DNA of 64,000 nucleotides. Source: Psammoneis japonica (Eukaryota). Made by a program: the position numbers and the translations under genes. This document shows, in pieces, positions 12,590 through 64,000 of this stretch (position 1 is the first letter of the stretch; each line of letters opens with the position of its first letter). The stretch is from contig QPGO01000059.1 in assembly GCA_008632985.1 (NCBI GenBank), positions 62,001 through 126,000 of the forward strand, given 5' to 3'. The notes under the pieces were generated by a model. The model did not search any database and was not told the origin of the DNA. It saw only the letters and a program-made list of their open reading frames with translations.

Positions 12590-13400
12590 ACTTTGGGCCC
12601 CCTTGCTCAACTGTGCCGCTCCTCCACACGGACGTCCACCTTGAACCCCTTAATTTGCTTCCTTCTCGGCCCCTCCTTCGCCCTGCCGACATTGGCACAT
12701 CCGCCCCTCCTGCTCCCGCCTCCCCCTCGGCCCCTTCCCGCCACCACTCCATCGCGGTCGATGTCAACGCACCCCAAGCTCCTTCTCGCCCTCCCCCTGC
12801 TGGTGTGCCTGCTCCTTCTTCCCCTGAATTAACTGGGCACACCACACGAGCGCGAGGCTGAAGTTGCTTGGCCCTCCTTCCTCCTCCTCTGCTGATGGCG
12901 GCTCCCTTGTTGTTTCTTCGCTCAACAATGACGGCATCTTCCTTCTCCATTTCACCATTGATCACCTTGGTGGCCTTGGCTTCTTTGCTCAATGCCTCCT
13001 CTTTGGCTCTGCACTCACATCCGTCCGGTCTCAACCCAAGCCACCTTGGTCCTCTCCCTCTGACTTTCGGCACTCTGATCCTTCCTGCTCTGCCTTTCTC
13101 TGTGCCTTGTCCTCTCCGTCTGCTCTCCTTCCATTGGCTGATTCTGCATGGCATTGCCTGTCCTTTGACCACTTTGGCAGCACCTTCCGCACTGCCTCTC
13201 CATCCCAATGGGCTCTTCAGGCTCTCAGCTGTTGCAACACAGTTCTCCATCTCTCTGTGCATGCCCTCCGCTTTGCCTCGACTCTTCCTGCACCTGCGCT
13301 CCCTGTCCCTTTGACCAAACACCCCATGTCCACTGCATTTGCTCTGTTCCATTCTGCCATCACTGCAGCTGCTGCCGTGCCTCCTTCTGCTGTTCCCTTC
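12590..13400 (+). mobile_element. 3' fragment of a CRE-like non-LTR retrotransposon (restriction-like endonuclease domain), decayed
   Basis: VHLEPLNLLPSRPLLRPADIG...IAVDV (PD..D), HHTSARLKL, and FTIDHLGGLG..A..LLFG. A second copy lies at 18325-18660. Confidence 0.7.
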
Positions 13401-15429
13401 CATTCTTTACAGGCTCTTCACAACTGTGTGCTTGAAACTCAATTTCCGATCTGCCACGACAGCAAAAAGCAACGACATCATGTTTTTTCTTAGACACAGT
13501 TTTTTGACAACATTCAATCTGTTGCTGTCATCCCTCCTCACACAGAGGTGCAGACTCTGGCCCACAGCAGGAGCAGCAGCACTGCTCAAACAAGAGGCTG
13601 CCTCCTGGCCACCTTGTTTGTTGGCACGCCAAACCCAGGAAATGTGCGCAAGTCAGCTTTGTTGCCACTCACCCTGTCTTCAGGCATCCCTTCATCATGA
13701 CATTGGCAGTGGGAGGCACTGGAGAAGTGCTTTGGGGCATTTCTTCTTTTCTTGTGTGCAAACTCATCGCCCCTTTTCAGTTTCAAAAAGTTGTCAAAAA
13801 GGGGCTGTGTGGGCAAAAAAAGCGCTGTCCTTTGTGCCACGCCATTTTTCCATTTTGTGAAAAAAGGGCTGGCTCAAGAGTGGTGAGAACTGGAGCATGC
13901 CACAGAGCCCTGAAAGCTTGACAAGCAAGCCCTTGTGCTGCCCACCGCCTTGTGCCTTCACTTCTTTTCAAGGTCAACAGGCCTTTGCAATGGCCCCCAA
14001 CTTGAGACTTCAAATGGCTTCATCTGCAAGCCATGTGGCAGCACTTGTTTGTCAAAACAGCTTGAGATTTGGAAGAAGCACTCAGGCCAAGAACACTTTG
14101 CCATGATGAAAAGTTGTCAAGGCTCAGGTCACCCCTGCTTTTGTCTCTGACCACATCTGCTGCCTCTGAGGGTCAGACACCACCAACCTGCAAGCCAACC
14201 AAATGCCACACAGCTGGCAACAAATGACAACTCTGCCTGCAAGAAAGGCACTCACCTCAGATGGGGCATTGCAGAGCTCAGCTTGACAGGGCCTCAAAAC
14301 CTGGCAAGTTGCTTTTCACCCCCTGCCAAGACACAGGAGCACATGCCACAACATTGACAGCACTTTTCACTTGCAATGCAGCTGCCATGTGCTGTGTGCA
14401 CACCCAATGCTGTGCTGGCAGCAGTTGCTGTGCACCTTGCACATCCACTTGTCAAATGTGCTCTGCGGCATTTGGCACACACACAAGCATCATTGCACTG
14501 CTGCCTGCTGTCCCTGAATGCTTGCCAAATTGCCAGCTCTGGCTTGAGCAATTCTGAGGCTTGATGCTGAATTTTTTTGACAACAAAGGTGCCACTTTTT
14601 GGGAGGGCATTTTTGCAATCAGGTGCAGCACAGCAGCTTTTAATCTGAAGCACATTTTTTGTTGTTTTGGCTCTGTGGCATGTCTGCCTCAACCAATGTC
14701 ACACAACTGATTTCACAAGCTTTCCTTCTGATTGCTTCATTTGGGTTTTCCTCTGCCACCCTGGCCTCCCCTTCATGTTGATGCTGTTCCTTTGTCTCGG
14801 CATTGTTGCCCCACCCACTTTGAGCATTGCTGGGGTGTGAGGTTGAGACTGACTGTGAAGGCTGCATTTGGGGGGGGCTTTTGCAGAGCCGGTGTTTTGC
14901 ACCATTTTGCAGCACAGCAGTTTTCAAGCCAAGCTGCTTGCTTTTCATTTTGTGCACGCATGACCACTCAGCTCAGTCTTCTGTTTGGGCACAAGATTTG
15001 TTGACTGTGAAGGCACCAAAGCCAGTGGTTGATTGCCAGCAGTTTGGCAACCTTGGGAAAACTTGCTTGACCTGACTTTCCTTCCACATCTGAGCCCAGC
15101 AATGCTTCCTGATCAAGCATTGCCAGCAGGAGTCAAATTTGTTGAGGTGCTTTGCCACATTTGAGTGCAGGCTTGGCAATGTGGGCATCACATTTTTAGA
15201 GCTCCTGAGTTGACAGAACTTTTTTCCATGCAAAACTTTAGAGCTTTCAGCTGAATGAGTTGGCTCCCATTGGCTGGAAGTCAGAGAGATGCCTGTCATC
15301 ACCATGCACAAGTGCAGCAGCTTCTCTCTGCTGCAGCCAGTGCTGGGCTGAGAGAGCCTGCTTGTCACAGGGCTTCCTGCCCTGTCATCTCTGCTGACTG
15401 GAAGGATTGTGCCACCCTTGCTGTGCACA

Positions 15430-16230
15430 GTTTCTTGGCATGCCTCACACGGCTGTCAATGTTCAAGGGACAACCATTTGCTTCCTTGGCTTCTTTGACA
15501 AAATCACCAAGAACTTCAAGACTGAATGAAGGGACAAAAGGATGAGATGATTGTGAAGGTGAGAAAGAAACTGCTTTTGGAAACACAGGAAACAAGAACA
15601 TGTGTTCTTGACAACAGACTCAGCTCCAGCTGAGAGCCCAGCTCATTGTGTGAAAATTGACCATGGCTTCATTGTTGGCACAAAGATGAGTCACCACTCA
15701 AATGGGTGGACCTTCAAGCAAGCAGCACAGTTGCCTGAGTAAAATCATGCTTGGCACACTCATTGCAAACACCATGAAAATTGGTGGGGAGACCATCAGC
15801 AGCAGCAAGAGCCACAGCCACTCAGGATCCTGTCACCTGTCACAAGGGGCAGAGAAGGCTGTGCAGCTTAAAAGTTTTGTTCAATGGTGCACACATGCTG
15901 AGCCAAAGGAGTTGCACCTCTTGGAGAAGAATTTTGCATTGTGCTCAGTGCAATTGACAAGTCTTCTCCCAAGCACTCCTTGTTTTGACAAGACGGCATC
16001 CATTGGCAGCTTTCATGGAGCAGCCGCTGTTGTTGACCACCACCCAAATGTGCAAAGGAGAGAATGCATTTTTTTGTCATGGCACCTCTGAGTCCATGAG
16101 CAAACCCTTGATGTTGGAGTTTCTTGACCTCATTTTGGCCGACTGTGTTGGCAGGTGCAGGAACAACTTTGCTGGATCTAGCCAGAAGAATGTGACAATG
16201 TCATTTCCGGTTGAGTGATCCAGCTGTGAG
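15430..16230 (-). pseudogene. Mutated vWA-like paralogue (third copy) inside block A
   Basis: Remnants [46 protein letters not shown] and SLEVLGDFVKEAKE. Internal deletion and stops; intron remnant at about 15522-15620. Confidence 0.85.
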
Positions 16231-16673
16231 TTCTTGCCATGTGCAATTTTTATGATGGTTCCTCTGATTCCTCTGCTCTTTTCATTCATTGCTGGCGGTT
16301 GCTGGACAAAAAGGAAAAAGGTGATCAAGCCATGGATGAAAGTCCCCCCCCCCCCCTCCACTTTCCTCCACGACAGCCACCTGACTCTGCGTGGAGGGCA
16401 GGCAGCAGGCAGACAATGCAGAACATGCTCGCGATCGCTGCCACCATGGGAGGTGCTCCTGCCTCATTCTCGTTGATCTGGAACACAGCATCCGGTTCGG
16501 TTGATGGTGTAGGCTCTAGTGATGCTCTGTCTAGTCTCCTTGTAGTTGACATGCTGCGTATATTCAGTGCCTTTCAAAACGTTTATATTTTAAAGATGCA
16601 TTAAAGTAAATACAATCAAAATTATGAAAGCTTCACAAACATGATGTCCCGGAATAAAGCATGGTATACTGCG

Positions 16674-17991: not shown

Positions 17992-18324
17992 TGTCGTTGT
18001 GCTGTTGTTTACTTTCTGTTTTTTGTGTCATCGCCGTTGCGTTCGTCGCTCTCGCCAATGGCGGGATTCGCATCGCTCAGTACAAGAAGCACGCGGCAAA
18101 TCGTGTATGTATATTTAATACTGAGATAGCTGTAGGATTACATATGCACGACTCGACTCGATCGGTATGTTTCTACGCAGTATGTCAAACGCGTGGAACA
18201 CAACGGAAGATTCGACTCGTGACTCATTACGTCACGGCTTCCGGTAAAATCGGCATTGAGATCGCAGGTTTTTTTTTGTCAATGTCGCTCACTGCAGCGC
18301 ATGGCTCCACTGCTAGAGAGTAGA

Positions 18325-18660
18325 AACCTCCCTGGTCTTCTCCCTCTGACTTCCGACACTCTGATGCTTCCTGCTCCACCTTCCTTCATGCCTTGTCCTC
18401 TCCGTCTGCTCTTCTTCCATCGGCTGACTCCGCATGGCAACGCCTGTCCTCCAACCGCTTTGGCAGCACTTGCCGCACTGCTTCTCTCTCCCAATGGGCT
18501 CTTCAGGCCCTCAGCTGCAATGTGGTCCTCCATCTTTCTGTGCATGCCCTTTGGTTTACCTCCACTCTTCCTGCCCCTGTGCCCCCTGTCCCTTCGACCA
18601 AACGTCATGCTTCTGCCGTTTTTGCCCCGTTCCCCACTCTGCCGCCACTGCGGCCAATGA
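18325..18660 (+). mobile_element. Second, shorter copy of the CRE-like retrotransposon 3' fragment
   Basis: Collinear with about 13045-13385 (ctccctctgactt...tcccaatgggctcttcagg...ctgtgcatgccct). Confidence 0.75.
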
Positions 18661-19632
18661 TGGACAATGTTTTGGCCTCCTCACACCACAGAAAACAAGC
18701 ACCAGTCATTGACTCTCACACCAACCGCAACAGTGTGCACTTTTTGTTTGCAAGCTCCTGTTTAAAAAAAATCCAAACTCCCAGTTTAAAAGCCACACAC
18801 CCAAATCTCTTGCTGCTTTTCAACAACTGTGGCTGACCTGGCAGTTGGGGCGATGATGGGTCGAATGGTTTTTGGCCTGCTGCCAAAAATTTTGTGCAGA
18901 GAGAGGCACTCCAGGATGACTTGCTGGAAGAACATTTTCTGCTGAGAGCCAGCTTTCTGCCAGCTTTGTTGAAATCAGAAATGCCACAAAAACACACTGT
19001 GGGCATTGCCGCGTGCAATGAAAGTTGTGCCTCTCCTGTGATGCTTTCTCCATGCATGCACATTGCACTCGCCTTTGTCTGTTGCCGTGGCTGCCAGCGG
19101 CAGCAGCACACTTGGGTCAGGCTGGCAGCAACAGCAGCAGATGGCAGCACAAAAAATGCAAAGAAATCTTCACACAGACAGACTGCCGCTGTGGCCACTC
19201 TTGCTGGAGGGTGGTGACTCCCAAAAATTCTGGCTCATCTCCAACCAGCCATTGAGCTGTTTCTCAACAAGAGTGCTGTTTTGGACAAAACACTCATTTT
19301 TAAAAACAGACAACTAAATGATGAAGCACAAAAAGCAAGAGTGCTTGTGTGTGCACAAATCAGAGGAAATCAAGGGGTGGCATGTTGAAAAATGGTGCTT
19401 GAAAAGAAATCTGTGCACCAGGGTTGGAATGCAGAGCTCTGCAGCAAGAAGAGAGGTCATTGGTGCTGGTCAAAATCCTTGTCCAACATGAGTGGAGAGT
19501 GCACCCCCCGCATTTGGGAGTGCCAAGGGTCTCAGCAAATGCAGACAATTTTGTGTTGCACAGAAATCTGCATGATGGGGAGCAAATGATGTGTTTTCAC
19601 ACTGAACAGCTTCTTGCACAACCTCCTCCAAC

Positions 19633-19652
19633 CTCTCTCTCTCTCTCTCTCT
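19633..19652. repeat. (CT)n microsatellite
   Basis: ctctctctctctctctctct. Confidence 0.85.
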
Positions 19653-20649
19653 CCCCAGCCAGATTTCAAGATTTTTTTGCAAATGTCAAGCCACTTGGAG
19701 CCACTTAAAAAACACTTGCTTTTGCCACAAGAGGGAAAATGGCAGCTGGGTTTCATTTTTCACATTGTTTGGATGAGAGTTTGATGTGTGACAAATTTTC
19801 TGCATTGACAAGGTCGTGCATTGGCCTCATTGCTTCTCCACTGCTTTGGCGCCCTTTGCTGCAGTCACGCAGGTTTCCCTCGCATCATCAACACACGACC
19901 AAAAACTGCAGTGCACCAAGAATTGGCTGTCAACTTGCAGCATGTTTGTTTCATGTGGCTGGAGGCAAGCCACCACAATCTGGTGTGTGAGTTTGAACAA
20001 GCTGGGTGCATGCAGAATTTTGAAATGGGCTGATTCAGTGAAGTTTGTTCTCATGAACAAATCATCTCTTTGCATGAATGAGCAACTGCCAAGGATGACT
20101 TTGCAGCAGCATTGACCAGGAGAGTTGTCCAATGTTGTTGATTCTCCAACTGGACAAGCAAGAAGGCTGCACTTTCCTGCTTGGGCTGGCACCACTTGAG
20201 AGTTGGATGTTGTTGCTGACAAGAGTTGATGATCCATTGCACACCCATGTGTCCTTCTTGCAAAGTGGATCGTTTTCCCACAGGCTCCAGTGGTCTCTGA
20301 AATCACCCATGAAAGCAATGTTTGGACATCCACAGGGCTTGTGTCTCGTGAAGTTTTTCCAAGTCCTTTTGCCACGCAATCATGGCGAAGAGGAACTGCT
20401 GGACAGCTCATGCATTCCGAGTGCTGGGAGTGATGCGGAAAGCGAAGACGCGCGTCCTTTTCGTTCAAAGCCCAACAGCATTTGGATTCGCACCGTCATC
20501 GCCGCTGATGCAATTTCTCAAATTTCCTTTCCAAACAACTAAATTGGCAGAGGGAAAGAAGCTGTGTCGCATTGTAGGAAATCGTGTCCGCGTGACAAAG
20601 GGTTTTTTCTTTCATGGTGAGGCTTGTTAATTTTATATGGTGTGTGGAA

Positions 20650-44239: not shown

Positions 44240-47200
44240 AGCATGTGTGGCCGTGTCATTCGACCTGGTCGACCACAATTTCTTGAGTCAAACGCCAAAC
44301 AAACCAAACCGAAAAACCGAAAACCAAACAAAACAAACCCACTTGCCTGCCTCAACGCTCGAGAATGGTGGATGTCAACAAAACATGATGATCTCAAGTG
44401 GATGAATGATGCATGATTCTTCGTCGAATGTGTCGCATTGGAGACAAGTGCAAAACTGCAAGAAGATGGGGCTTGCCATGAGCAAAAAAGCTCAGCTCCT
44501 CAAACCAGGTTTCGGTGGCCCCACAACCTTCGTGGAAGAAACGATTGCCAAAAGGCAAATTTGACATTTCAAAACTGTTGAGTTGACAATTTGCGATTTT
44601 TGCAACTGTTTCCCAATCCACTTTTGCCAGCGCAGGGCAAGAACAAAATCAAGGCGAGCATCGCTGCCATGGCCACAAGAAGGCTGTTGCCTCCTCTTCT
44701 GTCAAATGCGCTGACACCTCCAAGCATTCTGAGACTTCCAAACCATCTCTTGAGAAAACTCTGCAGGACTTACATGCAGAGCTCATTCCACTGCACCCGC
44801 GGTGCCTGTTTCCGGAACATTGACAGGCTGTGCAGCTGCAATGCACAAAGAGGAGTCAGATGACATGGATATGGACAAACTGAGTGGAGCTGGTCTCATT
44901 CTCTGCCAGACTGCAGCTGCTCAATGCTCCCCACTGGATGCATTGCTTGAGTTGGAAAGTCAGCACTGCCCATGTTTGCATTGCCGGATTGCTTTTTTTG
45001 TCCTTCGCAAAGGGGCACCACCGCTGACAGACATGCAGCACAAGGAACTCACATGCTGCCATCTGCCAAGGAGATTGTGAGCAGTGCCTGTTGATCAAAC
45101 CTGTGCTGGTCAAAAATGTGAGTGAACGTGGCTCAACTTCAAAACTCTTGCCCTTCTGCTGCTGTGACTTTGCTTTCCCCAGCACATGATGGAGCACAGG
45201 AGGCATGTTGCTCATCCCCTTGTCCATGATCAAGTCATCTGCTTTGGATGCCGCCTGGCTAATCAAGTTTTGCTGGCAGGCTGCTTGAGAGCACTGCAAT
45301 GTTGTGTCAGCAAGAAATGAGAGCTCTCCCTCTTTGGGCTGGAGAAAATGAGTGGCTTCTTGATGTTTTTCAGAGCTGTGGCACACCTCAACCAACTCTT
45401 GGAACCGTGCAAGTTTTTGTGCACAACTTTCAAGCAGCACCAGCTCTTTGCTTTGTTCCACAGAGCTGTGGTGTGGTCAGTGCTGGAGGTGCAGTTTTTG
45501 TGGCTGTTGGCAAGGGGTTGCAAACTCTTTGTCATTTGAGCCAGAGCAGTGTGTTGGAAAGTGTGGCTGTTGTCAAAAGCAGTGCACTGTGCAGCAGGTT
45601 GCTGATCAATGCCATGAAGCTCTGCTGCAAAAACATGAAGAAACAGCAGCTGTCAAGAGATGCTGTGGTGGACTCTTGCTGATTGGCTCCACCAAGCTCC
45701 ACACTGCAAATCATGGAAAACTTGGTGGGTTGGGCCCTCAGGCCTTCAAGCATGACATGCCTTGCTCAAAAAGATGTGAAGGACAACCCCTCATCAGCTC
45801 ATTGATCTGCCCATGCACTGCATCACCAACTCTGTTTGTCCACTTCATTGTGAAATGGTGCTGCTGGCTGCAATGACAAAAAGCCACAGCTGAAGTTTGT
45901 CAGATGGTGAAATTGCCACATGTTTCAAAACCCATTTTTGCAATGTTCAACAATTTTGACTCCAATGCCAACAGGCAAAATCTGGCTTTTTTAAAAAACA
46001 GCACTGTTTTCCAAAACAGCTGGCTGTTTTTCCTCAGTTGCTTTGTGCCACTTCAACACACAAGTTTTGTGCACTTGTCAATGTTTGCACAGCAGCAAGC
46101 AAATGAGTCAACCAGACTTCCTCAATTTCCTCAGGTGTTGCTGTCAGGGATGTTGACTGCCAAGTGGGACAGCAACCAACAGTTTGACAACAGCTGTGTT
46201 CCTCCTCTTGAGGAGCTTCCTGTTGTTGTCAACTTGTGCTCAAAGCACTTCATCACAATTCAAGTTTCTGGGTGTTCTGTTTTGTTGTCTTTGCAATTTT
46301 TCAGGTGTGTTTTTTGCTCATTGGCCTCCCAGCCCACCAAATCATGGCACCCCATGAGCCCCTCTGGCAACCATCCTCCAGCTGCCCTTCTCCTTGGTTC
46401 CCGTCCACCATCTTGCATTTATCTCACCAGCAGCACCTGCCATGCGCAATGTCTCTGGATCTGCCACATCCAGGACAGTGATGTTTTTTAGCATGACTGT
46501 GGTCATTGCCATCTTCTTCTGTGGAGCAAGGCACTCAGCCAGTGTCTTCCCATGCAGGCACTTGCAGTTGTCATGAAGCTTGTTTTTTTACATGAGGGGT
46601 GCAGCATGGCTTTGTTCCTTTGTGATTTTTTTCCAACGGCAAGGCAAAAGCTTCAAAAAATGGGGCAGCGTGTTGCCGAGCCGGCCTGCACCTTCTTGTG
46701 TTTCCTTCCTGCTCTGAAGAAATTGTCACATTTTCTCCAATTTTTTGTTGGAGCCCACATGTTCTTGACCCTCCTTGTGTTTCTTCCTGTTGTCTGATGG
46801 CTTCACTGCATGGAGAAGCGTGCATGCAAAACTTGCAGGCCCATGTCACATGCAGCAGCCCCACCCCCTGGGGCTGGAACATGCCACCCAGCACACTTGG
46901 CAACAACAAAGCATCGGCACACATGTCGGATGCTGTTGCAGTTTAGAAAGAAACAACAGCAATGGCTTGCCTGGAGTTTCTCTGGTCCCCACACTCAGCA
47001 CTTTCCTGGGATCTTTCAGGTGCTTTGCAGCCCACTTTCCAACTGCCATGGCTCCAATTTTTCCCTTCCCATGCCTTCCAAGTGAACTCAGGGTCATTGT
47101 GCTCCACTGTGTCTGGGTGCTTCTTCGGCATTTTTTTGACAAAGGTGTTCATCACATGTTTTGTAAAAGCAGAGTTGTGTCACCCCCCATTGACAAGTGC

Positions 47201-50200
47201 TGACTCTTTGGCACAGTGTGGTGCTGTGTCTTTGTTTGGGCAGGCAGTGCTGAGAAAGTCTTGTGACAGAGTTCTCAATGACCAGCTTGATGCCACATGT
47301 TGCTGGTTTGTCCTTCCTTGCAATGGCCACAAATCTTTTTCTTCCTTGCACTGCTGTCATCTTCTTTGTCATCATCATTGCCACACAGTGTGGCACAAAC
47401 TTGCCCCCTTTTTGTTTTTTAGAGGAGTGTGTTGACCAAAACCCTGTTTTCTTGCAAGGGCATCAGTGCATCACATTGTTTTTTGGTTTCTTTGCAGTGG
47501 CTGTCCCAGTTGCAGCCACTGCTTTGCCCTGCCCTTTTGCTGACTGAGACTTGCCAGCAGCAGTGGGCAGAAGCAGTGGCTGCTCTTCTTTGGACAAAGC
47601 TGAAGTGCCACCATCACAGTGACTTGCAGAGTTGTCATCCCCCTCCTCCTCCTTGTCATCCCCCAGCTCCTCATTGTCTTCTTTCCTTGTCCTCTTTTTG
47701 GCTCCATTTCTTTTGCTTTCTGCAGTTCCTTTTTTCCTTCTCCTTCTCTTTCTTCTTCTTTGCTGCACTTTTTGCCACTGCTGCTGACTTGGCAGTCGGC
47801 AGCCAATCGCTTTCTTTTCTTTGAGCAGCCCCGGGGGTGGGTGGCGCACACAATGACGCCATCACAGGGTCACTCATCCTCTTTGACGATGCCTTGGGCT
47901 CTCACAAGAAGAAACTGCTGTCCTGATTTTGCAACAAGGATGATGTGAGACATGTCAAAAAGGAAGCAAAACCACCACACCAGTTGCCATGTTGCAAGGA
48001 AGGCTGGGGGGGTGTTGATGACCACATCTTTTGGGAAGCCCCAAAAGACAAAAAAACACAGAAGAGCCAACAAGATGATCAAAGATTCATGGCAGGTGCA
48101 CCTCACAGGTTGTGTTCTCACAATGAAGGATGCTGCTGCTGGGCACTTCAAAAAAGGAAGCACAACCACCAGATTCTTTGCCATGTTGCAGGGAAGACTG
48201 GGAGGGGCTGTTGATGACTGCATCTTTTGGGAAGCCTTTTAAAAGACAAGAAACACAGGACCAACAACAAGGTGGTCAAAGACTCAGAGCAGCTGCACCT
48301 CACGGTGCAATTGTTCCTTTGGCTTGTGAAGACAGCGTGGGTTCAGCAGGAGCATCCACATGCATCAAATTTATCACCCAACACTCTGTCTCATTTGGGT
48401 GACAAAGTCACAGTTTGCATCGCATGTTGATGTGAAGACAAAGCTGGATGGTGTGTCAAAGCAAGAGTGACTGGCATTTTTGTCAGTGCATGCTCCAATG
48501 TGAAACAAAGAGTGCCTGGTCAAACACAATGGCTCTGAGTCAGGCACAACAATCTGTGGCAACAGATGGCATGCAAGTGGCCACTGAGTGGTCCAAGAAA
48601 AAGAAGAACAAGGGTGGCTCCAGCAGCACATCCTCAAACAAGTCTGCAGCCCCTCTCTTCATGTGCTCCTCACAATGTTTCACCAATGGAGGACCTGCCA
48701 GACACACCTGCAGCCAGCTGTTGTTGGTGATGAGCCAGACAACATTGGCGTTGAAGAGGGAGAAGAACCAAACCAACAACGCAAGATTGTTCTGTTGGTG
48801 CCACTCCTTCAACCAACTGCTGTGGCTGTCTTGTCCTGGAGGAAATGGAGAAAAATTTCAATGTCACCATCAACTTCATAAAAAGGGACAGAGTTGCCAC
48901 TCCACAAAAACACATTGGAGGGAGCAAACACACTGCACATCATTGCATTCTCAACTTGAGTTTGTGTCTGTGCCAAAAATTGCACAGGACACCTCATCAC
49001 AAGGCACACAAAGACATGGCAGATGACATCATTTTGATTTGCAAGGCATTCTTGAACAACACAAGCATGGAGCACTGTGGCACAGCCAATGGCCACTTTG
49101 GTGAGTTCATCACCATGTTGCATGCTGGCAAGTGTCTGTGTTGTTGCTGATGCAGCTGAATCTGTGCACCAGCACAGCTTCCCATTCATCATTGTGCACA
49201 GGAACAGAAGAGTTCTCTGTGCCATCTTGATGGACATGCAAGATGTTCTTGATTTGTCTTGACATGGAAACAACTTGCAACTGAGTCAACTTGTCAACAG
49301 ATGCCACAGACAGAGGGGACAAAGTTGCAATCGGGATTCAGATGCCAAAGTTTCCAACACAGTGAGTCATTGCTGCTGGCATGCCATCAAGAATGTTGGT
49401 GCCACTGGACAGCAACAAAGTGACAAGGTTGCAGTTGGATGGGTGTTGCTTGGTGGCCATCCAGGCCGGTCTTGACAGGATTGGGGTCAACAAGCAAGTC
49501 ATTCCAGATGGACACAGAACAGCCAAGTGTGTTCAGTGCAAAGCTGGCAAATGAGCTGAGCCAGCCTGCAGACAGCATGGGGTTTGAGACAATGTCAATG
49601 ATGGCTGCATCAGCAGCACTGGATGCAAACAAGAGTGCAGGCAACCATTTGGACACTCAAAACTGCACAAACAAAGATGTGGGCTGTGTTGGCACATTGA
49701 ATGAAGTGGTTCATGAAGCAGATGGCTGAGCCACAAGAAACAGCTGCACGGGTGCATGAAAAAGGCATGCAGTCATCTGCTCATGGAGAGAATGGGTGGT
49801 TGCAGAAATGCTGCCAATGGCAAGTTGAGAAGCTCATGTCAGTGGGGCCAGGTGCAAAGAGCTCGGCAGTCTTGAGGAAGGCACAAGTGAGTCAGCTGTG
49901 GCACTGGACAGGAAATTGAATTCCACACCAGAGTTGCACTTTTCAAAAAATCTGGCAACTGGGCTGGGCACATCAGCTTGATTGGAAAGGAGTGCAGCTG
50001 GCAGGAGATGGTGACAAGGAAAGCACAGGAAGGGAGCCACTGGGCATTGCACACACTGAACCCTTCTGCAAAGCTGAGAGTGGCAGCTCAGAGGTGGGAG
50101 AGTCAGGGCATGCCACATTGACAGAACACAACCTCCTGGTGCATGACTTCCATTGGCTGTGCTGCAATCATGCCAGAGAGGAAGCAAGAGTCAGGGAGTG

Positions 50201-51915
50201 TTGCATGGGTGGTCCAAGACCAGAACAACAATCTCTTGTTGTTGATTGGTGCAGTGCTGAAATTGGCTCAAGAGTCACAACACAGCAGCTGTGCTGACAT
50301 GCTGAAGTGTGGCTGCAAAAATCTCAGAGATGTGCCAGCACAGGGTTCTTTCCCAATGGCTGCAGTGAGCAGCCTGACCTCAGAGGATTGCAAGTGATGC
50401 ATGCAGCTCACACCAAAATTGTGGAAAAATCATGGTGCATCTTGGTGGCTTGCAAGAGTGGGGTGCCAACACCAACAACAGGCAGCAAAGCCTCTTGATG
50501 AAAGCTCTGTTGCACAAATTTAGGATTGCAGCAGCAATGGCCAAGAGCGGGCTTTGCAAGATGCGTGGAAAGTGTCATCCTCCTGCAGAGCTGTGCTTCA
50601 AAGGAGATGTGTTGTGCAACATCATGTGGATCAATGAAGAGTGCAAAGCTGCAAGAGAGATGTGCAGATGAGACAATGAGCAAATCACAATGGCATGGAA
50701 CAGTGATGTGATGCTTTGGAAACATCTGGTTCACAATGTCATTTTTCCAACAAAGCACGCAATCAGGCAGAGCATCCAGTGCAAAAACATGCATTGTTTA
50801 CATCATCAAAACAGAACTCACTGAAAGCTCTAAAAATGCCTGTGTTTTTCACAGACTCAGCTGTGTTTGTGTCAAAAATTTTGTCATCTTTGATGGCTTC
50901 AAACCACGGCTCTGAAATGCATTTGATTGCTGCACACAAATGAGAAAGCTGGCAAAGTCATTGAACAATGAACAAGTCAGATTCCCAAACAAAATCACTT
51001 CGCAATTGCATGCAGACATGTTTAAAATGTGGCAGTGCCACAGCAAAACGCTCTGTCACATCCAACTAATTTTTTCAAAGTGCCATGGGACCTTTCAGAA
51101 GATTGTGGCAAATCAGGGTTGGGTGACATTCCTCAATGAGTCTGGCAAGGGTCACATTTGCTCTGGAGCAGCCACAGCTGGTGCAACCTTTTTTTTTCTG
51201 TGGTGTGTTGATGACTGCCACCACTGGAGAAATGAACCCAGTGCCCAAGAAGCTGAGTTTGATGGCTGTTTGGGTCAGATCAGCTCTCTTTCAAATCTCC
51301 AAGTTGCAAGTCTTTGTGCATGATCTTTTCAAAAAGTGCTCACCAAGTGCAAGAGGTTGGATCTTCCAAATTGTGTTGGCACTGGCAGTCTCAGCAGCAA
51401 TGTGTCAGCCGTGGATGGCAACAAGGCACTGGTGGTCTGCACATGTTTTCTGTGAGAGAATGCCTCCATTGCAGCCATGTTTGTGTTTCAACACAATGGT
51501 GATGGGGAAGCATGTTGCAGCACCTTGGATGTGGATGCAGACTCATGATGTGGTGTGTTCCTCAAGGCCCTCAAACAAAATGTCCAAACTCAAGAAAAAA
51601 CTTGAATCTACCCTGGAGCTTTTTTGGTGCCAACGTGGTGAACCAACTCCGTGGCTGCATGGAGGATGTCAAGGGTTGGACTGGCAGCTCTGGTGATGAA
51701 GAAAAAATGACATGTGTGGGAAGAAGACAAAGACTTTGCGAGGTGTGAATGCGCTGCGGTCGAAGCAATTTCCAAGGGAAATTTGGAGCATGGTGGTTGC
51801 AAGGAAGGGGGGGAAAGCAGCTGACTAAACAATGCACGGGTGGACATCAGTGAAGAGGACAAGGACCGCATGGGGCATTTCATCCGTGTGCCGTGCGTTG
51901 TGCAAACTGCATGCA
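44240..51915. other. CpG/TpA-depleted block C (about 7.7 kb of decayed, unidentified repeat/TE sequence)
   Basis: Same signature; no protein family could be recognised by eye. Confidence 0.88.
47955..48310 (+). repeat. Diverged tandem direct repeat, period about 190 bp, 2 copies
   Basis: aaaaggaagca.aaccacca...gccatgttgca.ggaag.ctggg...tgttgatgac..catcttttgggaagcc at about 47958 and 48152. Confidence 0.8.
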
Positions 51916-53299: not shown

Positions 53300-55905
53300 G
53301 TGCAGATGACACTAAAGAGACTGAGTGCTGTCCTGCTGGCTGTTCTTGAGAGAGATCTCACAGATTGAAGAGATTTTTTTGCTCGTGTCCCGCCGCTCAC
53401 ATGTTGACCTTGCAGATTGGGAGTTGTTTGGCAATTTTGAAAAGGCATCCCACTGAAGAACAAGTTTTGACCAAGGCTGTTGAGCCCAAGAAGTTGGAGC
53501 CTGGAGAGCACATGGTGGTGTGTCCCTTCCTTTCTTGGCACCTTGTGTTCTGTTTTGTTCAAAAGTGTGAGGCACAAAAAAGTGGAGTGCTGTCTGTGCA
53601 GCAAGTGACTCATCACATGGTTGAAGGGACTTTCACAGCTTTGAAGTCAGGGAGCACGGAACAAGCATCATGCCCTTGAAGGTGACATGCAGGAGGGGGG
53701 AGGGGCACAGTGTTTTTTTTCTCTCCACTTTTGCTCCCCTCTCCCACTCTGTTGTTGATTTGTGTGCATTTGCTTTGTGCTCTTGCAACAAAAAGATCCA
53801 AGCAGACAGAGCTCTTGATCTTCTCATGGTTTCACCATGGAGGGGAAAAGTGAGCAGGGCCTGAGCAGCTTTGGGCTTGACATGTTCAGGCGTCACATTT
53901 GACATGTGGCCAGTGCGGCGCACAGGGAAGAGGCAGGAGCAACAATGCGCTGCTGATGGGTGGGCAGTGTCTCCTCTGGATCCTCTCACAAATCAGTTGA
54001 TTGCAGAGTGATTGCATTTTTGTCAAGTTCTTCTTTGGCTCTGTTGATGGCAGGCATGCGGCTTGTGGGTTTGGGGGGGAGCTGGGGCTCCCCAGTTTAT
54101 TTTGTCTGGCGAGATGGGTTGTGAGCCACTGGGACGCACCAAGTGCTGCGTCCCGCACCACGCAGCACGGACCACGACGAGCGCATGGTGCACAGTGCAG
54201 CACACACAGTGCACGCAAGCGAACCGCCATGGCAGATGCCATCCATGTCAAGAAGATGCCATTGAACGAATGTGCCATGGAGGATGATGCGCCTGCTGCA
54301 GATGAGTCTTTTCTCTCCTGAGGAACTTGTTCAATGAGAATCAAACAAGAGTTCTCAGACAAGATCACACTCTCTCTCCTTCTTGCATGCAACAAAAGGC
54401 CAGTCCAGGTGCCCAGCTAGAGCAGACTGCAGTTTAATGTGTGCAACAGATCGCATGATGATGGTTTAACCCACACACTGCGGGTGCAGTCCCTCCAGGT
54501 TTAACAGGCAGTGTGATGACGTGTTCCAAAAACTGGGCCCCCGCTTTTTTTGTCGGGGGGATTCCCCTTTTTATGCGAAGTGCTCCCCCCTAAACCCACA
54601 AGCCCACAGGCATGCTGCAGACACCGGCAGATGCACATCTGCCGCTGTCCCAAATTTTTGACAAAAATGCAAGAAAAAGAACAAGAAGAAACTTCAGCAA
54701 AAAAGCAAAAACAGGGAAAAAACAAACAAAACACTTGCCACCAACTCTCACAAAAAATGGCCAATGGCCAACAGACATCACACACTGCAACGCTGTTCTG
54801 AATCAACATTCTGAGCACTCCATTTTCTCACACAGGTGTGCCAAATGCCATGAGCATCTGCGAGGAAGAACAAACATCTTGCAGAGGAGCTCAAGATTTT
54901 GTGAAGAGAGGGCAAATCACAGCAATGAAGATGTTGAGGCCAGAGAAGTCATTGAGAACATGACGCTGCTTGCAAGTGCCTGCACCTTCTGAGGGAGAGC
55001 TGTGCACACATTTTTTTTATGTGTGCTGGGGGATCTCACCAATGTTCCACACCATTTGGCCAGCTGGGCAGCAGAGTCAGGTGAGGTTGGCCAGAGGATC
55101 TTGTCAAAACAGATGGCACACAACATTGGGTGGCATGGCACCCAACTGTTGTCCTCTTTTGACTGGTGCACACAAAGTTGAATGGCTGATGGGCGGCTTG
55201 TGTGAGGGAGTGTGTTGGAACACAAGGTGTGCAAGAAACGTTGGTCTTGTCCTCACTTTTGCTTTGGCTTCTGCGCCAGGATGCAACAACATGTGGCAGT
55301 GTGGGGTGCATTTGGAATGTGGCTGCAGTCCAAGTGGTGAGCTTTGGAGAGTGGTGGTGAGACCAACACAGATTTTTCCCCAAGAAGTTGGAACCTGGAG
55401 CATGTGGCATTGCTCTGATCTTGCCTCTCTTCCGCTGAGCATTCTTCCTGCAGCTGTTGCTCAAGCACATGTCAGTGGAACCTGGTCAGCAGTGCAGCAA
55501 GCACCTCATGTGGTTGAAAAGATTGGTGCTTGCCATTCAGTGCTGTGCTGGGATTTGAAGTCAAGGAGCACAACAAACCATGACTTTGGAGTTGACGTCA
55601 GCATGTTTTCCTGCACACACTTTCTTCTTGGCATGTTCTCATCCCTGCTGTTGTTGACTTGCTTGCGTTTGCATTGTGCACTTGCAACAACAAAGATCTC
55701 AGCAGATGGCCCCCTTGATTTTCTGATGGCTTTGTCATGGAGGGGAAGAGTGAAGGGGATCTGAGGCCCCCTTGCCCCCACCCATTGTGCCACCAGCACA
55801 CTGCTTCTTGTTTGGCACACAGCAGCATGGCATGCAGATGAGCGATGTTTCTGGTCACCAGGAACCTCCTCTGGATCCACTCACAATGCAGTTAATTGCA
55901 GAGTA
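53300..55905. other. CpG/TpA-depleted block D containing two diverged copies of one segment (about 53400-53870 and 55310-55770)
   Basis: Shared cccaagaagttgga.cctggag, ttgaagtca.ggagcac, cttgcaacaa.aaagatc and catggagggg.a.agtga in the same order. Confidence 0.82.
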
Positions 55906-57222: not shown

Positions 57223-57717
57223 GGTGCTGCTCTTTGTGACCTTATGCCGAAAGTTACAGGTGCATTAATTTTAGCGTACCGTACCGCCGTCTGTGCAGGA
57301 ACTGACGGAGGATGAGCTTTTTTTTTCTGGATTTTGTCAACCGTGTCTCGGGATTCCAAAATATGAACAGTTAAAAAGAAGTTGGCGCCCCCATGAGAAG
57401 TTTTAGAAGAGGAGACGAAGGGGAAAAGGAGGGAAGAAAGGAGCTTCACTAATGCGGTGCAACTCTGTTATGAGCAAGCACCCACGTTTGGCATAGGATG
57501 TTGATGATCAATACAGTATTTGAAATTTCTTATCGTTAGGTCTGCACTGCACCGGCAGGCAGTCTCACGCCCCGCACTGTAATGCACAGTAGAACCGCGC
57601 GTAGAAAAATGTCAGGCTACAGAAAATTTGCTGAGGGGGAGAACGCCGAATCAGATTTTTTCCTTGTTTCGCACGAGATTTGCAACGCAGCGACCATGAC
57701 ATAACCCGTCACGTAAG

Positions 57718-59850
57718 ATGGGCGTCGGAGGCCTGTGGCTCAAGGCGCTTTGTCCCATCAACACTCAACCCTCTGTTCCCTTCAGAGTGATGCCCGAGGG
57801 AAGAGACTTGGGGTCGATGTTTCAGTTTCGCTGCACAAAAACTGTCATGAGAATGTCGCGGTGCAGTGTTTGATGCTGGATCCACCACATCCACCGAAGA
57901 TCTCATTGACAGCTCTTCGTCAACACACAAGAAGCTTGTGTCCACTGGCATCACTCCAGTCCATGCATTTGAGGATGGGTGTCATCATCCGATGAAGAGT
58001 GTGAGGCCCGAGAGGCGCAAGACAGAGAACCATCCAGAAAGCCAACGGAGGATGGAGGAGTTCTTTTGCAAAGCCTGAAATGGCACTCTAATGCCTGATT
58101 CAGATCATGGCAAGGTGGCAAAGCATGTCTGAGCTCTCTGCAATCCAAGTGCAGACATGATCAGTGGCGTGGATGAAGTGCGACAATGTGGAGTGTGAAT
58201 GCGCCCCGTTTGAGGCAGAACATCAGCTCATGAAAATGGAGGCAGAGGGTTGGATTGATGCTGTCATGACAGCAGAGAATGGTGACACAGTGTTCCTCAG
58301 TGCAAAAGTTGTTCATTTCAAGGTTGACTTCAATGCTTGCAAGAGTGGAAGTTGCACACCAGCCAAAGCAACAATCTTCCTGACGGGCATCAAATGGGCG
58401 AGCATTCATTCAAGCACTGGGCAGTGATGGCCAAACTCCTTGGAATGGACTGCAACAAAAACATGTGCAACATTGCATTTGCAAAGGTTTTTCACCACAT
58501 TTTGTCACAGCTCTCAGTTTGGTCTGGTGCAAATGCTGTGCAAACAAACTGCACACAACAAGCACCCAAGAGCTCGCACCCGGGAAGGGTGCATGATCGC
58601 CTTTGACAAAGCTGTTGCACCATTCAAACATTGCCCTGTGCTTGATGCAGATTCCAATTTTGCACCATTGACTCCTTTGCCTGCATCTGTTGACATGAGT
58701 TCATGGGGCAATCTTGTTGGGTTTGATCCTCTCAAAGTTTTGCCACACAGTCAATCATTGACTGCAATGTTGCTTGATGATTTGAAGGTCCAACATTTCT
58801 GAATGGTGCCCCACTGAAGGCTTTGCCAACTCCAACTTGCACTGCAGGTGAGAACTGGGAAGCTTTTGGAAAAGAGCTGCCTTGATGTGCACACTTGAAT
58901 TTTGGGGGACTGCTCCTGCAGAACATGCCCTGATGGATGTGTGCTGAAGTGTGTTGGACTGCAGCGCAGCTTGGCCCAATCCCTGTGGATCAGTCTAAAG
59001 TGGTGGGGAAAATGTTGGAGTTCATTTTGCAAAATGAATTGATTTTGGAACTTGAGAAGGTTCCAGTTGAAATTGGCTTGTGGATGACACATGAGGTGTT
59101 GGAGCCTGCTGGCTGCACGACAGGTTGGGGTCACAGCTGCTGCTTTGATCGCAAAACCCAGCTTGGATGGAGCAATGTGGATTTGGTTGCAAGATTTTAT
59201 CCCAAAGGAAATGAGCATGGCCTTGTGTGTGGAGTCTTGCTGTTGGAAGGTGGCAGCTTGCTTGTAGATTCCATCCACTTTCAAATGTGTTGGGCTCTTG
59301 CGGATGGCAGCACGGTTTGGGTTTTCAGGCTTCACTGCATTCCATTGATGAAGACAGATGTTGCATCATCAAACACCTCAGAGGCAAAGCCAAAGAAGAT
59401 GTGCAGGAAGGACAATGGTTCATGTTGGTTTTGTTGCTTTGTCCAAGGAGTTTTTGCTGCTTCTGTTTTCCTGCTGCACGGTTGCTGCAATGACAGTGGT
59501 GTGTGCTGTTGTGTTCTTGCAACTCTGTGTGTGTTTTGACAGTCACAGAGGTGCATGGACCAAGGCATGTTTGAGAGAGCAATGCCGCCCTCTCCTGTCA
59601 ATCACACACCATTTTTGATCAAACAGATTGCATTTGCAGAGACTTCTTGGTGCTGCACTGCTTTTTCCACTGGAACAGAGAAGCAAACAGCAATGCTTTG
59701 TGCACAAAAGAGTTGCAACAATTGCAGATGCCTTGCTGCATCACACTGCTTTGTCTGCTCTAAAAGCAAGCAGCAATGCCACACAAGAATGAGCTGCTGT
59801 TGCAGAGACTTCAACAATTTGTCCACTGGAAGCAAACACAAAATTTGAAG
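57718..59850 (+). pseudogene. Decayed EXO1/XPG(Rad2)-family 5' nuclease fused to a C-terminal SWIM-like zinc finger
   Basis: MGVGGLW..L.P; RGKRLGVDVSV.LHK; GITPVHAFEDG..HPMK....ERRK; APFEAEHQL...GWIDAVMT..GD..FL..KVV.FK; H3TH-like LLGMDC...NIAFAK; FDKAVAPFKH.PV; then CIP.MK...GC.N.SG.C..VLATL. Confidence 0.8.
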
Positions 59851-60011
59851 GCACATTCAAAGACATTTCATGGCATCATGATGCTTGTTGCAACAGCAGC
59901 AAACAGCAATGCTTGGCACAAAAAGAGAAACATGACAAAGTCAATCATGAATGAGACACACAGTGCCAGTTTTAAATTGGACACTCCAGCAGTCACACAG
60001 AAAACCCCTGT

Positions 60012-62551
60012 TTATTCCTGGCTTTGCAGTGGCCGACCAATGTTCATCTCGGCGTGTCCCCATTCCAGCATGTGTGGTGGCATCAGGCACAAATTTTTGC
60101 ATGGTGCTCCATCCCAAAGGCCAGCCATTGCCACCAGACAAGCAAAAGCAGTTTCCACAGGATGCCATGCTCAACAAAGATCATGCTTGTCAGAGAGCTC
60201 CAGCTCATGACACTGTTTGACTTCTTGCTCTTGCAACAACCGTGGCACCCAAAAGCTCCAGTGAAGCAAGGAAACAAACATCTGTTTTCTCAAACCCCTT
60301 GTCTCCAAGACCTTTGTTTGGCAGCATCTTGTGCTGGCACAGAAAGACACCCGTTAGAGCCTCGGCATCATTGTCCAAAACATGACCTTCTGGCATCAAC
60401 TCGCTGCCAAGCCAGCATGACAAATCTCACTGGAACTCTTTTGTCATTTCCAAGCATGCACTCAGGATGCACCTTTTGATTGTTTTTTGGTTGCACAACT
60501 TGTGCAGTCTCTCAAACAGTTCAAGTTGCTGCAGCAATTCCTTTGAAGAGCTGTGGGGCAACAAATGAAGCACCTTCTCACTCATGGCCTTCATTCAGCT
60601 GCAGCTCTTGCTCAGCATTGGTGCAACCTTGTCCAAGCTGGCTTTGCACAGCTTTTCATCCATCACGCAAACAACTTTCAGCCACTCACTGAACCACTTG
60701 TCAATGTGATCCGCAATGTGTTGACAATTTTTGGGTTGAGATTGTCCACAGCCAAGGAGGCTGCTGCTCCTTTTTGTCAAGTCCAAATTGCAGTCAGAGT
60801 CACTGAGGCCATTCCAGTCACTCTCAGCACTGCTGCCACCACCACTCTTGAGCTCAAAATCAAAATCCCAAAACTCCACAACTCTGGAACTGGCCCATCT
60901 GTTGTTGGTGTCATGACCCTTCTCCTGAGCCTCGTGGGGATCTGTTGCCACCACTGCTTCCTCCAGCTCCTTCCCTGCCACCAAGCAATCCCACGTCATC
61001 CAGCACCTGAGCTCTTTTTGAACTTTGTTTTCTTTGGCATGTCTTTCCACTCATGAATGGGAGCTTTCTCCTTTTGGCATGAACCAGTTGTCTCCACAAG
61101 ACATTTTTCATCAACTCGAGCCCCATGTGCCCTTTGTGTGCTCACACGACAACTCGCACAGCAACACAAAATTCACAAACCAAAATGCAGAGCAGCTCAT
61201 CTCACTCTGCTGTTTTGTTTGCAACATGCTGCACCACCCTTCTGCATGGTGTCTGTTGGTGTGTCCTTGCCATCCAGCAGTGCAGCAGTTTTGTCAAAAC
61301 TCTGTCAACAAATTCATCTGGCATCCCTTGTCAAAACAGTTGGGAGGCATCGGCAAGATGGAAAGAAACTTGCCACACTTCTCACCCCAACCTGGGGCCC
61401 ATTTGTTCAGATGCTTCAATGCTGCAGTCGTCACCACCCCAAAAAACCATCCCGTCATCTTTTGGACTGGACAGTGGGCCCAAAGTGTTCCACAATTGGT
61501 GCCTGTTCAAATGCAGTTGGATTTGGCAGGGCACACACAAGCTTCTTCTTTTTGGCAACAAATTTGATTGTTGGAACATGCTCAGGCACATTGGCAAAGA
61601 ATGCAGATGTGTGCCACTTTGCCTTGTTAAGAGACTGGAATCCAAACAAGTCCTTGGCTGCTCCAGGGTTGTTGGTGTGCCATTCTTCTGACATCAACTG
61701 GTGCCAACATGCTGAGTTGCTGTCAAGAAATTCTGTCAAGGAATCTTCCACCTCATCAGCAACAAACAAAGGTTCAGGAGGAGAAGGAGGGTTGTCAGCT
61801 TTGCACTTCCTGTGGCTTGTTGCTGCCCTCTTGCTTTCCTGCAGGTGCTTGACCTTGGCCTTTGCTTCTTTCAATGCTCCTTTCTGGGCAATGATGCACT
61901 CAGCAACAATGGAGGCAGCTCTTCAATTGTGAAAGCTGCAAGGCTGTGTGCTTCTTCAAAGCCTGCTGACAATGACCCAGCTTTGCAAATGCCATTCGCT
62001 CATCACACACTTCCTTGCAGGAATTGTGTGATGACTTTGATGTCTCTGCAAACAGCAGGGGTTCTTTTGACATGTTGGGGCAATGAAAGCAGTTTTTCTT
62101 TCCTTTCTTTGCAATGCCGAACCATGTCAAAGGTGTCAGCAAGTGTCTTCATTTCTGTTGCAGGGAGAGGGGCATGAATGTTTTCTTGCCCTTGTCAAAA
62201 AACTCTCCAACTGTCCAGCCATCCAATGGCATCTCATGACTGGCACCGATTCAATGCTGGCAACCAAATCTCCAGATGTGCCAAGGTTCAACAGTGCAGC
62301 ACCTCTCCATTTTGACTGCTTCGCTGAGTCACCTGAAAGCTGTTGTCACTTGCACCTGCCAGCATGAGTTTGCACTGTCAGGCAATGGCACCAAGAGCAC
62401 AAAGGTGTTTCTGAACCTCACGGCATGCATCACCCCAGCTGCAAATGCTGGTGTCATTTTCACCCCACCTCCTTGGATCATCTTTCAATGAAGACAGTGG
62501 CACCAGCTCCATGCTGTGAGAGGCACAATCAGGTTGACACGTGTTTTGCAT
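60012..62551 (-). mobile_element. Decayed DDE transposase of PIF/Harbinger-ISL2EU type (DDE_Tnp_4-like)
   Basis: HTH-like TAFEQ...FGV....KWAP.WG; LLDGKDTPTDT (D1, about 61250-61280); LGDKGFEKTD (D2, about 60280-60310); ARHPVETAF (E, about 60145-60172); C-terminal NIGRPL. Possible THAP-like N-terminus CQPDC. The 5' end is tentative. Confidence 0.75.
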
Positions 62552-62984
62552 GTGGTGTTGTGTTTCATCATGACTGTGAGTTGATTGTTGTGCAAAGTGA
62601 AAGCAAAAATCAGTGTCTCTTCCAAGCTCCACCATCAAATTTTTTGGAGTGTGATGCATGTCTGGTGCACCATGAGGCTGCTCCTTGTGGGAAGACCTCT
62701 TGTGCATCAAAGCAAGAACCAACCATCTTTTGTGCTGAGAAATGTGCAGTGGATGACGCGCGGCACACATGTGGCTGCTCCACTGTTTGAAACTGTTGAA
62801 GTGGTTCTTGTTTTGCCAGCCACATTTGCTCCCTTTGTCCATCAGAGCCAATGCCAAGACACCCTCCAACCATGTGTGAGAAGTGGAGCATGTGCACAAA
62901 AATGATGCTGGCACAATTTTTTGCACACCCCGCCAGCAAAACATGGCATTGTTTTCACCCCATCATCTCAAAAACGCATGTTGA

Positions 62985-63870
62985 AAGTTCAACTTCAACA
63001 AGCAGTGATCTCACCTCCATCATTTTGTGAAAAAAACGTCAAACAATTTGATGGATGGACATGTTTCAATGACCACATCTCCATCACAAACCCCATCATT
63101 CAAACAAACCCTCAGTGCCTTGCCCCCTTTTCATTTGCACTTTCTGTTTTGCAGCAGCTTCCAACTCTTTTTGCTGTTCATGAAAAAAGTTCTCACAAGA
63201 TTGTTCCCAGGAAAAAAAATTGCTGAGTCGAACGGGCCAACTCTCACCTTCTGAGAATTGAGTCTTGAGTCTCTTTTGAGCAGATTAATTTTTGGTGGGT
63301 GCCCCAAGCAACATTTTTCCCACCAAGGTTGCTCAGAGAATTGTTTGATGATCATGGTTAAAATGATGGTCTTCACAAAATTTCAGTTGGAGATTTTCCC
63401 ATCTGATGATGACAATGGATGGTGACACCATCTCCTCATGAAAGCTGTTGGCCATTGAGTCTTGTGACTTTGTCAGTCCATGATGCAGGACACTTGGATG
63501 TGTGGACCAACGAAGCTTCAATTTCCAACTGCAGACAGCCACAAAGCAGACAGCATTGCCATTTTTAGCTTGGAAGCTGTCACAAAATGGGCAGCAAGAT
63601 GAATTTGTTTTGCTCATTGTCCTTGTGGGAAAATGCAATCTGAGCAGAATGACCAACTCTGCGCTGAAGGACTGAGCACAAATTTCTGGAGAAAACAAAA
63701 AGGCAGAGCCAAATTCCTTGCACATGAAAAGGGGGTGAGGTGCTGAGAGGGTTTGTTCAGATGATGACAGGTTTTGCAGTGGAGACACAATCATTGAAAC
63801 ATGTCCATCTGCCAAATCATTGGACAGTTTTTTCCCACAAAATGGAGGTGATCACTGCTTGTGTCAAATG
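62985..63870. repeat. Diverged inverted repeat: arms about 62985-63140 and 63720-63870
   Basis: caagcagtgatc..acctccat...gatggacatgtttcaatga...aacaaaccctc...cccccttttcat matches the reverse complement of the second arm. Confidence 0.8.
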
Positions 63871-64000
63871 GCCTTCATGTTGACAAAAGATGACATCTCA
63901 CAATGTCATGAGACAACATTTTGGGGGGCACCCCCACCACTTTTTTGTTTGCAGCTCCTGCAAAGGTGCAGGAATGGCCCCACAATGTCCCAGCCTTTTC

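Follow-up and report, generated by a model that had tools for sequence, protein, structure and literature searches.

Repeat-induced point mutation (RIP), known from Neurospora and other ascomycetes, acts mainly on CpA, where C becomes T, and thereby generates new TpA steps. Another dinucleotide-directed process has been described in Bigelowiella natans, where, according to the main text of a preprint on mutation-accumulation lines, A-to-G or T-to-C at TpA accounted for 230 of the 231 de novo changes that arose in two integrated viral regions (Mettrop et al., bioRxiv 10.64898/2026.01.13.699255). The integrated DNA is that of a giant virus and a virophage, and an ADAT2-like adenine deaminase was proposed there as the agent. 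On how DNA stiffness can steer an enzyme, one account of the base-flipping uracil-DNA glycosylase (UNG) describes best activity in flexible TA contexts, with AA/TT the most rigid steps and AT steps also called rigid (PMC9995336). Here we analyse a 64-kb stretch of the alga Psammoneis japonica (assembly GCA_008632985.1, contig QPGO01000059.1, positions 62,001 to 126,000; hereafter the window), in which the TpA step has been nearly erased from five bounded blocks and the few steps left stand mostly beside a T before or an A after. We put at about 75% the probability that these survivors are the slowest sites of a TpA-directed A:T-to-G:C mutator with context-dependent kinetics.

TpA and CpG depletion in bounded blocks

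Block boundaries were drawn from a 500-base dinucleotide scan of the window. Five blocks, covering 22.4 kb of the 64 kb (22,390 bases), have lost nearly all TA and CG, and their TG/CA content has almost doubled. As features without strand, they are:

12840..16500: block A, TA-poor and CG-poor; 9 TAs left, 8 of 9 with T before or A after
18330..20530: block B, TA-poor and CG-poor; 6 TAs left, 6 of 6 so flanked, all with runs of at least 2
44240..51915: block C, the focal block, 7.7 kb; 20 TAs left, 18 of 20 in TTA or TAA
53320..55890: block D, TA-poor; 8 TAs left, 7 of 8 with T before or A after
57720..64000: block E, TA-poor, continuing past the window end; 12 TAs left, 11 of 12 so flanked

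Only 55 TA sites remain in the blocks against about 879 expected, an observed/expected ratio (o/e) of 0.04 inside and 0.57 outside, together with 260 CG sites (o/e 0.20 inside, 0.95 outside). Conversely, CA/TG stands at 1.78 in the blocks and 1.18 outside. AA/TT is not depleted (1.27 inside, 1.16 outside), and AT, AC/GT, AG/CT and GA/TC likewise lack a TA-like depletion. The note that preceded this analysis and was made from the letters alone (the sequence-only reading) held that enzyme or repair specificity fits such a pattern better than general GC-biased drift does, and the undepleted AA/TT, with a G+C content that is practically unchanged (48.7% in the blocks, 47.6% outside), bears this out.

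Scaled to the DNA outside, some 824 TA and 952 CG have been lost (1776 in all) against 1678 TG/CA gained, a balance most simply read as the turning of both TA and CG into TG/CA. The dinucleotide counts of the blocks therefore display change of the B. natans type, restricted to TpA and with TpG and CpA as its products. Overall the two products are even, with 2499 TG and 2477 CA and balance in 21 of 25 one-kb bins, which implies that both strands were mutated. A local departure lies in block E (58720-60719), where one kb holds 141 TG and 88 CA and the next kb 93 TG and 141 CA (p = 0.0006 and 0.002 for the successive bins), most remaining bins being balanced. The GC dinucleotide is also raised in the blocks (o/e 1.29 vs 1.04 outside).

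Surviving TA steps and their flanks

The sequence-only reading had quoted twelve surviving TAs of block C and described the survivors as almost entirely TTA or TAA, with rare exceptions. All twelve are in place (45992, 46944, 47164, 47420, 48240, 48372, 48879, 50521, 50799, 50831, 51023 and 51609); a further eight had been overlooked (44771, 44870, 45260, 46420, 46489, 46589, 51067 and 51826). Of the resulting twenty, eighteen have a T before or an A after, the exceptions being ATAT at 44870 and CTAC at 51609. This bias is strong both against the TAs outside, 603 of 1632 of which are so flanked (Fisher p = 1.5e-6), and against the flanks of pyrimidine-purine (YR) steps within the blocks (2423 of 5291; binomial p = 4.8e-5). 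The same pattern had been claimed for blocks B and E, correctly (6/6 and 11/12), and it extends to A (8/9) and D (7/8). The flank bias is thus present in each of the five blocks, and 50 of the 55 survivors share it (p = 1.9e-12 vs in-block YR steps).

Three survivors of block C serve as examples below, again without strand. Two involve run X1, the one public run that contains the stretch and is possibly the source of the assembly:

45992, within 45986..45997: fully protected TA at a T-run/A-run junction
46420..46421: surviving TTTA step, TTTG in another contig of run X1 (46421 A>G)
46589..46590: surviving TA step at a T-run, TG in another contig of run X1 (46590 A>G)

Survival itself depends on the flanks. 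With expected TA counts scaled from neighbouring genic DNA outside the blocks, VTAB steps (TA neither preceded by T nor followed by A, and hence without a protective flank) are reduced to 5 of about 554 (0.9%); one protective flank leaves 34 of about 287 (12%, or 0.119) and two, as in TTAA, 16 of about 38 (42%). The ten strand-symmetric NTAN classes differ accordingly in survival (chi-square p = 9e-25), and the TA shares of YR steps differ between run classes as well, so that the depletion is not uniform across flanking bases once composition and homopolymers are controlled; uniformity would have told against the earlier claim of specificity. Moreover, in-block TG and CA steps carry zero, one and two protective flanks in 54, 39 and 7% of cases, much like normal DNA, as against 9, 62 and 29% for the survivors; uniform back-mutation from TG/CA therefore cannot produce the pattern.

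Run length, polarity and flanking C or G

Protection grows with the length of the run of the step's own base (Ts preceding it or As following it). TA survival is 0.009, 0.04, 0.195, 0.417 and 1.08 at run lengths 0, 1, 2, 3 and 4 or more, the last class holding 14 TAs against 12.9 expected. On the assumption of equal exposure, these values correspond to relative erasure rates of 1, 0.68, 0.35, 0.19 and about 0. Block C alone gives survivals of 0.011, 0.045, 0.20, 0.35 and 1.4, and the rule is unchanged in block cores trimmed by 300 bp at each edge. Polarity is strict: runs of at least 2 in the wrong orientation (A before, T after) leave 0 survivors of about 116 expected. Additionally, a C before the step (equivalent to a G after it), on the flank opposite the run, gives extra protection in all three run strata (pooled odds ratio 4.1, p = 1e-4); CTAG retains 2 of about 39 steps and RTAY (purine before, pyrimidine after) 1 of about 290.

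These numbers refine what had been read from the letters. The proposed target, VTAB, is indeed the class most thoroughly erased, at 0.9% survival against 12% and 42%, but RTAY describes the target better, given that C before or G after also protects. Similarly, the suggestion that TAs in A/T tracts are protected stands as a graded effect of run length, while a single flanking T or A is a weak shield (4% survive), full protection comes only from run 4 onwards, and a run of the wrong polarity gives none. The best target is RTAY; a pyrimidine before or a purine after slows erasure, and homopolymers of the step's own base nearly stop it.

Homopolymers were controlled for by computing, within each run class, what share of the YR steps is TA, since both conversions leave a YR step as YR. 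The shares, in the order run 0, 1, 2, 3 and 4+, are:

TA share of YR, inside blocks:.002,.005,.032,.060,.104
TA share of YR, outside blocks:.201,.113,.149,.127,.150
CG share of YR, inside blocks:.054,.046,.048,.016,.022
CG share of YR, outside blocks:.214,.251,.185,.227,.312

Within classes, the depletion of TA declines from about 100-fold at run 0 to about 1.4-fold at run 4+. The CG share shows no run protection, so A/T runs are not a general shield of DNA and the loss of CG is a separate process. With CG at an o/e of 0.20 and TpG/CpA as the products, this second process would most simply be the decay of methylated CpG, which covers the CG part only. The edges of the blocks point the same way in space: the TA edge is sharp, and the CG edge is soft, lying about 500 bases further inward at both ends of block C. 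At those ends (44240-44815 and 51634-51915) TA is already absent at near-normal CG density, over some 300-550 bases past the CG-poor zone, and soft CG edges recur in blocks A, B, D and E.

Which base pair is protected

A run on one side of the step could shield a single adenine or the whole step. If it shielded one adenine only, survival could rise no higher than the square root of VTAB survival, about 0.095, and 3.0 survivors would be expected next to one-sided runs of at least 3; 14 are found (P = 3e-6). A one-sided run therefore protects both base pairs of the TA step. Two readings fit this result, namely an agent that reads the duplex, or one that works on a single strand and disfavours both T at -2 and A at +1.

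Tetranucleotide gains add detail of uncertain weight. TTGC(/GCAA) has gained 197 and TCAC(/GTGA) 16, figures that are confounded by CG-derived products and by the difference in composition between blocks and genes. There are hints, on which we do not rely, that of the two adenines the one followed by A enjoys more protection, TTA going to TTG rather than TCA, and the TTGC/GCAA gain may reflect a preference for TAC to TGC, with the same confounding by CG-derived products.

Direction of change in repeats and contigs

Comparing the window with itself by BLAST yielded 6 repeat pairs, 4 of them short and inside blocks, none of which pairs a mutated with an unmutated copy. In-block pairs differ by far more transitions than transversions (e.g. 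51 vs 11), and they hold 18 double columns in which CA in one copy faces TG in the other, compared with 5 in two genic paralogue pairs. One such repeat, of 336 bases, is shared by the left edges of blocks A and B (13038-13369 / 18324-18654; 80% identity, 51 transitions, 11 transversions and 7 CA-vs-TG columns). Genic paralogues occur at 8835-9845 and 16732-17658 (67-69% identity), the second within a 1.8-kb island of normal DNA between blocks A and B; this copy is not TA-depleted, and duplication alone thus does not trigger the mutator.

Logan contigs of run X1 cover 30 of 30 bins and agree on the TA-free state, and they carry a second, haplotype-like version of the stretch; two other runs, X2 and X3, contain next to none of it. 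Among the differences listed (40 of 381), at least 4 are TG/CA swaps, and in that same set the X1 contigs have TG for CA of the window, or the reverse, at 46434-46439, 47467-47468 and 57818-57819. To judge from these contigs, the alternative version resembles a second haplotype, or a close copy, in which conversion took place independently. Taken together, the CA-vs-TG columns and the TG/CA swaps indicate independent conversion of ancestral TA or CG steps. The two run-flanked survivors at 46420 and 46589 differ as TA versus TG, not TA versus CA, and so are not run-extending substitutions. The direction from A:T to G:C is read from the mass balance, the repeat columns and the contig swaps, the changes themselves being unpolarised.

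A proposed context-dependent TpA mutator and its rivals

We propose that a mutator turns TpA into TpG or CpA, an A:T-to-G:C change that could fall on either base pair of the step, and that the remaining TAs are the sites where it would be slowest, at a rate set by the surrounding bases. This rate would be highest at RTAY and lower with a pyrimidine before or a purine after, and it would drop stepwise as the T or A of the step grows into a homopolymer. Because a one-sided run protects both base pairs, the context is probably sensed at the level of the duplex, either as local shape or rigidity or as a roughly palindromic site, and not from the 5' neighbour of one strand alone. As to the cause, we infer an enzyme, for instance a DNA adenine deaminase like that proposed for B. 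natans, in preference to a bias of repair or polymerase; duplex structure would likewise account for the protection by runs.

Several points weigh against this proposal. Expectations come from genic DNA or in-block YR steps and not from unmutated copies. The survivors number only 55, which leaves between 0 and 18 sites for any one NTAN class, and the survival model takes exposure as equal across blocks. Rigidity by itself is insufficient, as AT steps are rigid too, yet ATAN keeps 2 of 483 (outside-scaled). Finally, no enzyme, lesion or de novo event has been observed.

Substitutions are elevated beside homopolymers, which lends some plausibility to the view that erasure was blind to context and that the present TAs are back-mutations by run-extending substitutions (T-run+CA to T-run+TA, or TG+A-run to TA+A-run); CG steps beside runs of at least 3 are also somewhat more depleted, as run-extending C-to-T changes would predict. 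Nevertheless, no such hot spot is visible outside the blocks, where the TA share is.150 at run 4+ and.201 at run 0, and the rate from TG/CA to TA would have to be some 60-fold higher at run 4+ than at run 0 (14/135 vs 5/2868 YR steps). The normal TA level at run 4+ (14 vs 12.9), which protection predicts, would be a coincidence, the two polymorphic run-flanked sites are TA versus TG and hence not run extensions, and the effect of C before or G after would be left unexplained. We regard back-mutation as unlikely for these reasons. The flanks might alternatively mirror composition, if ancestral TAs stood mostly at T-run/A-run junctions, or selection on functional motifs. AA/TT is somewhat richer inside than outside, at the o/e values given above, but the roughly 100-fold and 1.4-fold drops in TA share arise within run classes, and in-block TG and CA steps have the flanks of normal DNA, unlike the survivors. 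Selection, for its part, finds no coding sequence or known motif to act on in Pfam searches of the read-through frames of blocks C and E and of the longer open frames of A, B, D and E; ATAA accounts for a single survivor, so that motifs resembling poly(A) signals have not been preferentially retained. Both versions of this idea thus appear highly improbable.

Error-prone repair or an RNA route would have the merit of tying the loss of CG and TA together in the same domains. Polymerase eta prefers the WA motif, and errors of this type might follow the repair of deaminated methyl-CpG; ADAR-type editing of a double-stranded RNA intermediate is the other option, and ADAR, according to the discussion of the B. 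natans preprint, favours U before the edited A. On either route the flank rule would express the context bias of the polymerase or of the editor. Both spectra, however, also hit A after A, and AA/TT is undepleted. Furthermore, TA loss is sharper than CG loss and does not track it, extending past the CG-poor zone by about 500 bp at either end of block C; both strands are about equally affected, and Pfam searches showed no retroelement domains in the blocks within this window. Either route is accordingly improbable. A sequencing or assembly artefact, in which modified bases of silent DNA were miscalled at TA and CG, might be suspected given that the window comes from one assembly, of which run X1 may itself be the source. 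The X1 Logan contigs nonetheless agree on the TA-free state in every bin with differences that are haplotype-like, repeat pairs differ as TG versus CA at the same step, unlike the bias of a base caller, and a like process was seen in another alga as real de novo mutations by Illumina, according to the preprint's main text. An artefact is hence barely credible, and the context-dependent mutator remains the reading that we favour.

Content and neighbourhood of the blocks

The window is eukaryotic and intron-poor, and the long open reading frames (ORFs) outside the blocks carry R3H, HSP20, GTPase and Vps4-type AAA ATPase domains. The sharp TA edges adjoin normal genes, including those for the Vps4-type AAA ATPase, the GTPase and HSP20. 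The blocks themselves yielded little to Pfam. Frames read through stops were used for blocks C and E, and blocks A, B and D were covered by open frames alone. No family was found in the six read-through frames of block C, and none reached the curated cut-off, whether in 82 open frames of at least 85 residues (blocks A, B, D and E) or in block E read through stops in six frames. These Pfam searches also returned no retroelement domain in the blocks of this window. Weak DUF6356 and FH3_FHOD1-3 matches in the open frames of blocks A, B, D and E were taken as chance, and the two longest open frames of blocks D and E appear to be non-coding translations.

The start of block E (58161-58424, plus strand) gave a weak match to XPG_I, a domain of XPG/Rad2-family nucleases (E 7.6e-5; 23.5 bits, below the 24.9 cut-off), and the match appeared again, weakly, among the read-through frames (E 0.007). 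The read-through frame upstream of it resembles the N-region. Judged from this sequence similarity, it is probably a decayed nuclease gene copy in a hypermutated block.

Other local features concern single blocks. In block D, 6 of the 8 remaining TAs lie within 175 bases (54418-54591), and the contig depth of the adjacent bin in run X1 is 822, compared with about 57; this cluster may be a younger or repeated, less mutated insert. Block C contains a tandem duplication of about 150 bases (47957-48106 / 48151-48303, 80% identity), at which the purine/pyrimidine skew flips, a point from which two former genes may have run in divergent directions. An ORF of 343 residues (56210-57241, minus strand) without a Pfam family lies in the normal DNA that separates blocks D and E; the Atlas clusters nearest to it consist of hypothetical viral proteins and one cluster of glycosyltransferase family 11 (scores 0.92-0.94), which we treat as a lead only.

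Comparison with known systems

A context rule in quantitative form provides a fingerprint that can be tested. Such a rule could guide the choice of substrates (RTAY vs T4-A or T-A4) and the screening of candidate deaminases, make the process recognisable and datable in other genomes, and tell it apart from the CpG decay that affects the same DNA. Should the enzyme work on double-stranded DNA, it would amount to a natural A-to-G editor. More tentatively, and with doubts outweighing confidence, the flank rule may record how a natural adenine editor of duplex DNA recognises its target, an editor that would defend the genome in at least two distant lineages of algae. The roughly palindromic preference would suit an enzyme that recognises the two strands of the step together, and, if this is true and the 231 de novo events of B. 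natans follow the same rule, a single conserved system would be at work.

RIP resembles the process described here in that both produce dense, local transitions at a particular dinucleotide, with a preference among flanking bases, in DNA that is silent in RIP and presumably so here. Unlike RIP, it destroys TpA and creates CpA/TpG (TA o/e 0.04, CA/TG 1.78), the reverse of the RIP signature. RIP also acts on duplicated sequence, and among the 6 repeat pairs of the window no dependence on duplication is seen. The enzymes ADAR, TadA and ADAT offer the A-to-I chemistry (read as G) and, according to the discussion of the B. natans preprint, work better when U or T precedes the target A. However, they use RNA, or single strands in the case of engineered editors, and ADAR also edits A after A, whereas here TA alone is hit, on both strands of genomic DNA, and T or A runs protect. 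By analogy with UNG, for which the cited paper describes rigid AA/TT as a poor substrate, there may be a physical reason why homopolymer-embedded steps could resist. Still, UNG is a repair glycosylase and not a mutator, and the rigidity of AT steps gives no protection here.

The closest counterpart is B. natans, which, in the preprint's main text, shares with this locus the bounded regions, the change confined to TpA with TpG and CpA as products, and, over the long term, low TA with high TG+CA. The two differ in several respects. Apart from the different organism, TA o/e is 0.04 in the Psammoneis blocks compared with a Rho of 0.45 in the virus region of B. natans, CpG has been lost here as well, and the blocks hold no recognisable viral or transposon domain. 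B. natans hypermutation is described there as enriched in silent or foreign DNA, with a de novo rate raised in some lines only, and the Psammoneis blocks lie beside normal genes. The rule of flanks and run lengths is absent from the preprint's main text, where the words 'context', 'flank', 'trinucleotide' and 'tetranucleotide' occur 0 times. A full-text literature search found no TpA erasure in diatoms and no flank rule, and B. natans as the only case of A:T-to-G:C change confined to TpA. For a region-targeted, TpA-specific A:T-to-G:C mutator, the one prior report found is therefore this 2026 preprint on another alga, to which the P. japonica blocks add a graded dependence on sequence context.

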